64,000 nucleotides of DNA from Rhodopila sp. (lineage in GTDB: Bacteria; Pseudomonadota; Alphaproteobacteria; Acetobacterales; Acetobacteraceae). Shown piece after piece: positions 5,145-7,435 of this stretch. Numbering within the stretch: the stretch's first letter is position 1; the number at the start of each line of letters is the position of its first letter. The stretch spans positions 18,643 to 82,642 of the forward strand of contig NZ_DASZTJ010000033.1 of assembly GCF_035548235.1 (NCBI RefSeq), read 5' to 3'. Position numbers and translations under genes: made by a program. Below the pieces are notes generated by a model. It was not told the origin of the DNA. It did not search any database and was given only the letters and a program-made list of their open reading frames with translations.

Positions 5145-5531
5145 TTAGCGGCGTCGTGCTTCGGCCACGCCCTGGGGGGTGAGTTCCAGGTGCCAATGGC
5201 ATTGCAGCGCGCCCTCCGGCAAGCGGATGGGTTCGCGGATCAGTCCGTCGCGCAGGCAGGCGTCGATGGCATCACGGAACGCATCATAGCCGACCGGCGT
5301 GTCGGTCAGGGCGGCAAAGCGTTCATAACCGGCTTCAACGCTGGGGGCGGTGATGCCGTGACGGAAGCCGACGGCCAGGATCGCCGAACGCGCGGCGTCC
5401 AAACGGTTCGTGTGAGCCGTCCCATCATCGTTGGGCATGTGCGAACTCGCTGCTGGACGGAAAAGGGACCGAACCGGCGACTGCGGCACCACGGACGGTC
5501 TCCTGGCATGATGGATAGCCACGGTGGCCAT
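5145..5531 (-). CDS. Hypothetical protein between carA and carB, possible winged-helix fold (alternative start 5438)
   Basis: ATG 3 nt after the carA stop; helical core followed by LIREP...WHLELTPQG wing-like ending. Confidence 0.6.
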   Translation of the reverse strand: MATVAIHHARRPSVVPQSPVRSLFRPAASSHMPNDDGTAHTNRLDAARSAILAVGFRHGITAPSVEAGYERFAALTDTPVGYDAFRDAIDACLRDGLIREPIRLPEGALQCHWHLELTPQGVAEARRR

Positions 5532-5534
5532 CCA

Positions 5535-6890
5535 TTATGTCCGCTGCTCCATTAGTCCCACGAACCGCTTGAACAGATAGTGGCTGTCCGACGGTCCCGG
5601 ACTGGCCTCCGGGTGGTACTGAACCGAAAACACCGGCCGGTCGATGACCGCGATCCCCTCGTTCGATCCGTCGAACAGCGACACATGTGTCACCTTCGCC
5701 CCTGCCGGCAGCGTATCCGCGTCCACCGCGAAGCCATGGTTCTGGCTGGTGATTTCGACCTTTCCGGTCTCCAGGTCCTTCACGGGCTGGTTGGCGCCCC
5801 GATGGCCCCGGTCCAGCTTGTAGGTCTTCGCCCCCAGCGCCAGGCCCAGCAACTGGTGTCCAAGGCAGATGCCGAATAGCGGAACCCCCGTCTCCAGTAC
5901 GCCGCGGATTGTCGGAACCGCATACTCCCCGGTAGCCGCCGGATCGCCGGGGCCGTTCGACAGGAACACGCCGTCGGGTTTGTGACGCAGGATGTCATCG
6001 GCCGTCGCGGTGGCGGGGACGACGGTGACCCGGCAACCGGCGGTCGCCAGGCAGCGCAGGATGTTGCGCTTGGCGCCGTAATCCACGGCCACGACATGGA
6101 ACCGAGGCTCCGTCTGCCGGCCGAAGCCCTCGGGCCAGGCCCATGTGGTTTCGTCCCAGTCATAAGTCTGGCGGCAGGTAACCTCCTTCGCCAGGTCCAT
6201 CCCCTCCAATCCCGGCCAGGCGGAGGCTTGCGCCTTCAGCGCATCGAGGTCGAAGCGACCGTCGGCGGGGAAGGCCAACACGCCTGTCGGGGCACCACCG
6301 TCGCGGATGCGGACGGTCAGCGCGCGGGTGTCCACCCCGGCGATGCCGGTGATGCCTTGTGACCGGACCCAGGCGTCGAGCGTCTGCATCGCCCGCCAGG
6401 ATGACGGTTCGGTGATGTCCTGCTTCACCACCAGGCCGCGGGCAGCGATGTTGGTCGCCTCGATATCCTGGACGTTGGCGCCTACGTTGCCGATATGCGG
6501 GAAGGTGAACGTGATGATCTGGCCGGCGAAGGACGGATCGGTCAGCGTCTCCTGATATCCGGTCATGCCGGTAGAGAAGCACACTTCGCCAACCGGGGCC
6601 GTTCCCGCCGTATGGACCCCGAACCCGCGTCCCCAGAACACCGACCCGTCGGCCAGTACCAGCACGGCGGTGGCGCCAGCCGGCACACCGTCCACTGCCT
6701 CGGGGGTTTCGCCCGTCATCAGGTCCGCCATTGTCAGCCCCGTGGCGGCGATCACTGCGGGCCAGTGCCGCGACGGGATGGCGCCGGCCTGGCGCCATTT
6801 GCGTACCGCTTCGGTGCCTACGCCAGTAAGTCGAGCGGCTGAGTCGGGACCGCCGAGGCGGTCTATGATAGAGTCGATCGCGTGCGCCAT
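5535..6890 (-). CDS. carA: Carbamoyl-phosphate synthase small subunit with N-terminal Cro-like HTH extension
   Basis: [29 protein letters not shown] catalytic Cys, HPE triad. Start re-called at MAHAIDS (6890), 7 nt after a -10 box. Confidence 0.97.
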
Positions 6891-6896
6891 GACTTG

Positions 6897-6925
6897 ACTA
6901 TATGGGAAGAAACTTCCCAGCTCAA
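6897..6925 (-). promoter_or_regulatory. Predicted sigma70 promoter of carA with a palindromic operator filling the spacer
   Basis: Minus strand TTGAGC (6925-6920), 17-bp spacer TGGGAAGTTTCTTCCCA (perfect 7-3-7 palindrome), TATAGT (6902-6897). Confidence 0.75.
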
Positions 6926-6940
6926 CTGTCGCCCGGCTTG

Positions 6941-6957
6941 ACGGAAGAAATCTCCCG
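6941..6957. promoter_or_regulatory. Second degenerate copy of the 17-bp carA operator
   Basis: ACGGAAGAAATCTCCCG matches TGGGAAGAAACTTCCCA at 12/17 positions, 38 bp away. Confidence 0.55.
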
Positions 6958-6970
6958 GAGGATTCACGCA

Positions 6971-7435
6971 ATGCCAGACACCATCCTGACCGGCGGATGC
7001 CAATGCGGTGCTGTCCGCTATGCCCTGTCCGAAGCTCCGGAGTCGACCGTTTGCCATTGCCGCATGTGCCAAAAGGCCGTCGGCGGACCGTTCGCCGCGT
7101 TCTGCAAGGTGCGTCTCGACCACTTTGCCTGGACGCGTGGCCAGCCGGCCGCGTTCCGCAGCTCCACGGCGGCGGAGCGGCATTTCTGCCGCGACTGCGG
7201 CACGCCGTTGACCTTCCATTACTTGCATGGCGACGCCATCGAGGTGACGACCGGCAGTCTCGATCATCCGGAGACGGTGCCGATCATCCGCAACTTCGGT
7301 GCCGACTCGCGGCTGCCTTGGATCGACCGGCTGATGCCGGGTGCGGTCCCGGATGTGCCGCCCAGCAATCCGGCGCTGGACAGCCGCCAGCATCCCGACC
7401 ACGAAACACTGACCGGCTGGCGGCCGCCTGCCTGA
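6971..7435 (+). CDS. GFA family Zn-binding protein
   Basis: [18 protein letters not shown] and [11 protein letters not shown] motifs; GGAGG SD before ATG 6971. Confidence 0.9.

Follow-up and report, generated by a model that had tools for sequence, protein, structure and literature searches.

Does an enzyme whose gene is transcribed from a promoter built around a palindrome, and whose N-terminus is a DNA-binding domain, control its own synthesis? This question is raised by carA, the gene for the small subunit of carbamoyl-phosphate synthase (CPSase), in a 64,000-nt stretch of the Rhodopila sp. genome (contig NZ_DASZTJ010000033.1, positions 18,643 to 82,642; hereafter the window, whose coordinates are used throughout unless another locus is named). 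The carA control region contains two 17-bp sites, a predicted proximal operator (O1) and a predicted distal operator (O2), and the CarA protein begins with a helix-turn-helix (HTH) domain of the Cro family. Our reading, to which we give a probability of about 0.7 on the basis of comparative sequence analysis, is that this domain represses the carA promoter by way of O1 and O2. A literature search returned no publication on the function of carph-isopro, the family to which the domain belongs, on carA operators or on a Cro-CarA fusion, and the fused proteins are labelled in the databases merely as 'carbamoyl-phosphate synthase small subunit'.

The carA promoter and its predicted operators

On the minus strand, from 6925 to 6888, the control region reads TTGAGC-TGGGAAGTTTCTTCCCA-TATAGT-CAAGTC-ATG, with all elements present. 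The -35 hexamer (TTGAGC, 6920..6925, minus strand) and the -10 hexamer (TATAGT, 6897..6902, minus strand) were found by a consensus scan, and both abut O1 (6903..6919), a perfect 7-3-7 palindrome that makes up the exact 17-bp spacer between them. The initial annotation of this DNA had described a palindrome filling the spacer, and we find the same placement in 99 of the 123 related loci considered below. The carA promoter was the sole promoter-like match between 6500 and 7300 (9 of 12 matching positions and a 17-nt spacer; 0.2 matches expected). The degenerate copy that had also been noted nearby is real: O2 (6941..6957; CGGGAGATTTCTTCCGT on the minus strand) shares 12 of its 17 bases with O1, departs from the GGAA-N5-TTCC core at a single position and is centred 38 bp from O1, and a second site is kept 38-40 bp away in most related loci.

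Scored with a weight matrix, O1 reaches 27.5 bits, the best value in the genome, and O2 reaches 13.3 bits; the O1 17-mer with three or fewer mismatches is expected 0.06 times in the window. Perfect 7-3-7 palindromes of any sequence are by no means rare: the window has 14 of them and the genome 847. The case for O1 therefore rests on its position and its conservation.

The carA start codon (ATG, 6888..6890, minus strand) lies 6 nt past the -10 box, and no Shine-Dalgarno sequence precedes it. The gene thus has the sequence features of a leaderless mRNA, namely an ATG not preceded by a Shine-Dalgarno sequence, with the -10 box 5-9 nt before it, and transcription probably starts at about 6890-6891, which would leave the carA mRNA without a leader. 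The initial annotation had correctly put the ATG shortly after the -10 box with no Shine-Dalgarno sequence, but the A of the codon is at 6890, one base off the position 6891 that it implied.

A Cro-like domain fused to CarA

The carA gene (5535..6890, minus strand) encodes 451 aa plus a stop codon and matches TIGR01368 with 450 bits. Its product consists of a Cro-like domain, a linker, a CPSase small-chain domain and a class-I glutamine amidotransferase domain, in that order, and the catalytic motifs GICLGHQ and HPE are intact. The roughly 70 extra residues at the N-terminus comprise an HTH of five helices (residues 5-58, encoded at 6717..6878, minus strand), with TEAVRKWRQ as recognition helix, and a flexible linker (residues 59-70, encoded at 6681..6716, minus strand) that joins the HTH to the CarA body. 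The NCBIfam model NF046037 ('carph-isopro', cut-off 38 bits) matches residues 6-58 alone with 77 bits and the full protein with 72 bits, and the domain occurs once in the Rhodopila sp. genome.

Several lines of comparison relate this domain to phage Cro proteins. Although it misses the gathering threshold of the Pfam family PF14549 (P22_Cro; 22.5 vs. 30.2 bits) and is also below the cut-off of PF15943 (YdaS; 19.8 vs. 30 bits), a profile built from 62 sequences of the family retrieved, among solved structures, Xfaso1 Cro (3bd1, E = 9.5e-8), a Cro hybrid (5w8y, 3e-7), N15 Cro (2hin, 1.6e-4) and P22 Cro (1rzs, 7.5e-4), and PHROG 8008 matches the domain family at 1.3e-6. An AlphaFold2 (AF2) model of the domain has helices at residues 2-12, 15-22, 26-35, 40-50 and 54-58, with a predicted local distance difference test score (pLDDT) of 84. 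The nearest folds found by Foldseek are the 434 repressor DNA-binding domain, Xfaso1 Cro and N15 Cro, the latter including its operator complex; for Xfaso1 and N15 Cro the probability is 1.0 and the template modelling (TM) score 0.63-0.71 (0.71 for 3bd1), with E values of only about 0.07 for so short a domain. By profile and by fold, then, the N-terminal domain of CarA is a homologue of phage Cro proteins, and the fused HTH that had been recognized in the initial annotation is both real and conserved.

The full-length model (pLDDT 87) shows a confident CarA body, and the linker residues 59-70 are of low confidence, below 50-58. Linker length among relatives is estimated at about 11 to 59 residues. 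In the window, an in-frame internal ATG lies just past the HTH (…DLMTGETPE…, 6720-6740, minus strand) with GGCGGA ahead of it, and could yield a CarA that lacks the HTH; it is probably not conserved, as the linker sequences differ among relatives.

Named relatives, among them Acidocella aquatica, an Acetobacter MAG, Rhodopila and Acidisphaera, assign the genome to the Acetobacteraceae, and the fusion is nearly universal in this family. We found the domain in 191 of 201 Acetobacteraceae genomes and in 138 of 143 genera, nearly always on CarA frames of 450-500 aa; the order that contains the Acetobacteraceae is represented by that one family in our sample. Ten of the 201 genomes gave no domain match. 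Six of these have no carA, or lack its 5′ end, in the assembly; G223 has a frameshifted assembly in which both sites are intact; and two, G098 and G147, have a carA that is outright domain-less, to which G226 and G376 were added from outside the set. Shorter domain-bearing frames (189-394 aa) were considered as other fusion partners, and both of those examined turned out to be frameshifted carA genes.

Among 24 other alphaproteobacterial families, matches above the cut-off were obtained in three, and the one examined in full is not CarA. It is a 455-aa protein headed by the domain family (68.6 bits; G052, L035:1444-2811, plus strand) that contains long coiled coils and a predicted membrane segment. 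Its gene immediately follows hemC and hemD, and G053 encodes a protein with a similar N-terminus.

Conservation of the predicted operators in the Acetobacteraceae

We compared 123 distinct carA loci that encode the fusion, counting as a site any match of at least 11 bits within 260 bp upstream. At least one site is present in 123 of 123 loci and two sites in 102. Part of these sites went into the weight matrix, which makes the scores partly circular; a count of GGAA-N5-TTCC with no more than one mismatch gave the same picture. The palindrome is thus kept in orthologous promoters. Its consensus is TGGGAA-N5-TTCCCA with an A/T-rich, variable centre, and 106 of the 123 proximal sites have the GGAA/TTCC core without a mismatch. 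The arms are invariant in sequence and show no compensatory changes, which points to a protein-binding site rather than an RNA hairpin. It is very improbable, in our view, that the palindromes are instead promoter-structure elements, or hairpins in RNA or single-stranded DNA, with no role as operators. The abundance of perfect 7-3-7 palindromes in the genome would be compatible with such a role, but besides the invariance of the arms, two copies are present with phased spacing, both are located upstream of the point where the transcript is predicted to start, and both are lost together with the HTH domain.

The loci fall into two architectural classes. Class I, which includes the window, comprises 99 of the 123 loci and has the form TTGnnn-(17-bp site)-TAnnnT-6/7 nt-ATG, and this leaderless geometry, a spacer palindrome with an ATG 6-7 nt past the -10 box, extends over dozens of genera. 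Within this class the -35 box has its TTG in 90 loci, the -10 box its TA in 78, and 98 loci start with ATG; the start codon follows the -10 box after 6 nt in 64 loci and after 7 nt in 30. Class II comprises, by our reading, about 15 loci, including those of Acetobacter- and Gluconobacter-like genomes, in which TTCCCA occurs 17-18 nt upstream of TAnnnT, the right half of the site thus being the -35 box, and in which a leader of about 20-90 nt carries a Shine-Dalgarno sequence. O1 overlaps the core promoter in both classes, and since it lies within the promoter, a protein bound there should compete with RNA polymerase in both. In one genome (G002, L015), a tandem duplication of about 29 nt spans the carA start (…ATATCTGTCCCAATCGAAACCATCCCCGC / ATGTCTGTCCCAATCGAAACCATC…) and adds about 28 nt to the distance between the -10 box and the ATG, which converts the leaderless layout into a short leader.

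The distance between O1 and O2 is also constrained. Among the 102 loci with two sites it is 38-40 bp in 82, 48-51 bp in nine, 42-44 bp in four, 36-37 bp in six and 29 bp in one. The distances step by about 10-11 bp, which suggests that two bound units are kept in helical phase.

Gene neighbourhood and the role of the distal site

In the window the gene order is ilvA-greA-carB-(128-aa open reading frame)-carA, facing GFA-yqeY-dnaG. The carA locus is not a phage immunity region, as it lies in a conserved ilvA-greA-carB-carA / yqeY-dnaG neighbourhood. The open reading frame (ORF) of 128 aa between carA and carB (5145-5531, minus strand) starts 3 nt past the carA stop codon and has no Pfam or NCBIfam match. 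On the other side, and mentioned here for context only, the divergent GFA-family gene (6971..7435, plus strand; PF04828, E = 2e-22) has a Shine-Dalgarno sequence, GGAGGA (6956-6961), that overlaps the edge of O2. Among relatives the divergent neighbour differs, being either GFA or yqeY, and O2 keeps its distance to O1 and not to the neighbour.

These observations bear on a suggestion of the initial annotation, in which a plus-strand TTGAC together with the distal site served a promoter of the GFA gene. The TTGAC is present, at 6938-6942, but the neighbour varies and O2 tracks O1. We rejected a GFA promoter starting from this TTGAC, as its -10 candidate, GATTCA, is poor and the layout is not conserved.

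They also bear on a broader alternative, in which HTH-CarA does bind but O2, at about -60, activates transcription, or the pair of sites coordinates carA with its divergent neighbour (GFA or yqeY-dnaG) in the manner of a two-state phage switch. O2 is centred near -59 to -61 from the predicted start, where class I activators typically bind, and in the window it overlaps the Shine-Dalgarno region of the GFA gene. The location of O1, however, whether as a spacer of the optimal 17 bp or as the source of the -35 box, is one suited to repression, and the spacing of the two sites is maintained while the divergent neighbour changes. We thus regard activation or coordination as quite unlikely, and repression of carA as the better account.

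A motif essentially confined to one locus

The initial annotation had proposed a genome-wide search for the motif near pyr and arg genes. No such regulon was found by exact-pattern and weight-matrix scans of the genome or in 50 other genomes. The 5.27-Mb Rhodopila sp. genome holds 26 sites above 12 bits, about one per 200 kb; in the weight-matrix scan the runner-up reached 18.0 bits, against 27.5 bits for O1, and the runners-up were mostly inside ORFs. The exact pattern GGAAG-N3-CTTCC showed no enrichment, with eight occurrences in the genome vs. 14 for the control. In the 50 other genomes, every pair of sites among the matches listed, beyond which there were 274 further ones, adjoins carA, and GGGAA-N5-TTCCC shows only a small excess that is apparently accounted for by the carA sites. 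As judged from these scans, the TGGGAA-N5-TTCCCA motif is essentially confined to the carA locus.

Two isolated resemblances were noted. In the Rhodopila sp. genome but outside the window (G000:C126:49900-50110), GTGGGAAATTCTCCCAC and CGGAAAGAATCTCCCC-TATAGA are found in an intergenic region upstream of a histidine-kinase-like gene; they resemble the carA operator (15.8 bits) with a different arm spacing, and are probably due to chance. In a 1.9-Mb genome of the family (G102:C22:83294-83308), a third GGGAAGAATTTTCCC occurs near the expected start of carB, about 1.9 kb past that of carA.

Which protein may bind the sites

The relation between domain and sites can be followed through the carA genes that have lost the domain. 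In G098 and G226, which belong to one genus, and in G376, the best upstream score is at most 4.2 bits; all three are reduced, AT-rich genomes of 1.7-2.1 Mb. In G147, a genome of 5.5 Mb, the domain-less carA keeps a leaderless promoter, TTGCCT-TGCGAAATTCCTTCCCA-TAGGTT-7-ATG, but its O1 carries a mutation at a G that is invariant elsewhere, and O2 is down to 2 bits. By sequence comparison the domain was lost independently at least three times, and in each case the sites were lost or decayed as well. The initial annotation had proposed a test of the co-occurrence of palindrome and HTH-fused CarA in relatives, and in the four domain-less carA genes the sites are gone or decayed.

The stand-alone relatives of the domain point in the same direction. 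These are proteins of 70-78 aa encoded beside CI-like repressors and phage primases, and their own promoters bear different palindromes of 17-19 bp, which suggests that DNA binding at its own promoter is the ancestral role of the domain family. Two loci of one genome (G124 L152:646-2243 and L156:1495-3158) resemble prophage immunity regions: one Cro-like gene, or two in tandem, lies opposite a CI-like repressor gene, with a PHROG 23106 gene and then a phage primase gene behind, and the palindromes in the Cro-like promoters are of the TAAGCG-N7-CGCTTA and TGTTGA-N5-CAACA types.

The main competing account is that a separate, free-standing factor of the Acetobacteraceae, for example a pyrimidine- or arginine-responsive repressor, binds the palindromes, and that the Cro-like domain of CarA does something else, serving protein-protein contacts, localisation or binding to other DNA. 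There is precedent for separate regulators, as carAB is elsewhere controlled by separate proteins (ArgR, PepA, RutR and PurR in E. coli), and a non-enzymatic membrane protein also carries a member of the domain family. The candidates at hand did not qualify. ArgR was rejected because the Rhodopila sp. genome, which is 97.9% complete, has no ArgR gene (PF02863), the same search being positive in eight of 14 control genomes. The 128-aa ORF between carA and carB was rejected as a family-wide binder: in addition to its lack of a family match, it is absent from Gluconobacter oxydans 621H, in which carA and carB are 3 nt apart with no ORF between them by the published coordinates (PMC5756330), while a Gluconobacter-like genome keeps both sites. 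No regulator gene is conserved beside the carA locus. The motif is essentially confined to that locus, the sites are gone or decayed wherever the domain was lost, including in the 5.5-Mb genome that keeps the promoter, and the stand-alone homologues of the domain are prophage Cro proteins with palindromes in their own promoters. We consider a separate factor unlikely on these grounds. The restriction of the motif to one locus, the co-loss, the prophage Cro paralogues and the lack of ArgR favour attribution of the sites to the fused HTH, as had first been proposed for this locus.

Proposed mechanism and points against it

In the mechanism that we propose, CarA would be a bifunctional protein, a normal glutamine-amidotransferase subunit to which a flexible linker attaches an HTH of about 55 residues. 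The domain would bind, most likely as a dimer, to the two 17-bp palindromes of the form TGGGAA-N5-TTCCCA in its own control region. As O1 is the spacer of a sigma-70-type promoter, bound protein would exclude RNA polymerase and thereby repress carA and, downstream, carB. O2, about 39 bp upstream, or about one helical turn more in some lineages, would raise occupancy by cooperative binding of dimers, and the regulated carA mRNA would be leaderless. As for its origin, the arrangement looks as though a phage cro gene had been taken up together with its operator-promoter and joined in frame to carA in an ancestor of the Acetobacteraceae.

Whether the circuit would also sense metabolites is a further matter. 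It is possible, though on balance doubtful, that the whole CPSase complex acts as a metabolite-sensing repressor, in which the degree of oligomerization or assembly of CarA-CarB would set the number of Cro domains that pair on O1 and O2. In E. coli, this state shifts with UMP vs. ornithine and IMP. On such a reading, the carAB promoter would respond directly to the pyrimidine and arginine status of the cell, or to surplus CarA outside the complex, with no need for a dedicated regulator, and the circuit, derived from a captured phage cro gene, would have persisted throughout a bacterial order.

Several observations weigh against repression by the fused domain, or against details of it. The small subunits of E. 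coli CPSase lie far apart, and it is unclear from this arrangement how HTH domains would pair within a holoenzyme. A distance of 39 bp corresponds to about 3.7 helical turns, which places O1 and O2 on different faces of the DNA. Reduced genomes lose regulation generally, so that among the domain losses only G147 is a clean case, and there the decay of the sites is partial. With respect to specificity, a raw association that by itself speaks for the fused domain links Gly or Ser just before the recognition helix with G or C at operator positions +/-7, the mean fraction of C being 0.12 in loci with Gly vs. 0.61 in loci with Ser; a tree-controlled test of the same covariation had one supported independent pair only and leaves room for a separate binding factor. 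The existence of a membrane protein headed by the same domain family indicates that its members are not necessarily operator-binding.

The available transcript data add to these points. The primary transcriptome of G. oxydans 621H has no start site upstream of carA (PMC5756330, Table S4), and these data do not confirm the predicted class II promoter. A weak start (24 read starts) was detected 28 nt inside the annotated carA ORF, upon which the authors moved the start codon to +69 (PMC5756330). In a Gluconobacter-like genome (G389, L163:1452-1521), the +69 start lies midway through the conserved HTH, between AGVG and LEAVRKW, and because the HTH protein is strongly conserved, the re-annotation is probably wrong; alternatively, the internal start could give an isoform that lacks the HTH. 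A search for other primary transcriptomes from the Acetobacteraceae found none.

Comparison with known systems

A close parallel is with the lambdoid Cro proteins (Xfaso1, N15, P22, lambda), with which the CarA domain shares a homologous all-helical fold, 17-bp palindromes that overlap a sigma-70 promoter, more than one operator, and stand-alone family members located opposite CI-like repressors in prophages. Unlike phage Cro and its right operator (OR), the CarA domain is covalently fused to a chromosomal housekeeping enzyme and has no partner CI and no divergent promoter of the PRM type, and there are two operators about 39 bp apart at carA whereas phage OR has three, about 23-24 bp apart.

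Among enzymes with DNA-binding domains, PutA is similar in having such a domain at the N-terminus of an active enzyme and several operators in its own divergent control region, with self-repression, as proposed here for CarA. PutA differs in that its domain is a ribbon-helix-helix, its pathway is catabolic, and its switch responds to redox state and to association with the membrane. BirA, NadR and the archaeal RbkR (PMC5397151) likewise carry an N-terminal HTH or winged helix on an enzyme of the pathway that they control. These proteins sense their own product or adenylate and act on several operons, whereas CarA would have a single target and is a subunit of a large allosteric heteromer. In common with trigger enzymes, CarA has a DNA-binding domain on an apparently active enzyme and cognate operators, to which we infer that it binds, in its own promoter.

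The comparison with carAB of E. coli is of interest because the target gene is the same. There, the P2 promoter is overlapped by ArgR boxes and the P1 promoter is controlled by PepA, IHF, PyrH, RutR and PurR. Palindromic operators over the carA core promoter are thus common to both systems, but the regulators in E. coli are all separate proteins, ArgR is absent from the Rhodopila sp. genome, and the E. coli ARG boxes, which are 18 bp long and about 21 bp apart centre to centre, differ from the carA operators in motif and spacing. To our knowledge, little has been established about carAB control in alphaproteobacteria that lack ArgR.

Implications for the Acetobacteraceae

If our reading is correct, CarA would join the few enzymes that act as repressors of their own genes, and the locus would provide a clear case of a phage Cro and its operator-promoter domesticated into core metabolism. 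The circuit is simple and can be read in nearly every Acetobacteraceae genome, including those of the industrial genera Acetobacter, Gluconobacter and Komagataeibacter. The supply of pyrimidines and arginine matters for the growth and engineering of acetic acid bacteria. The carA promoter-operator pair may also be of use as a compact, probably self-limiting expression element for Acetobacteraceae hosts.

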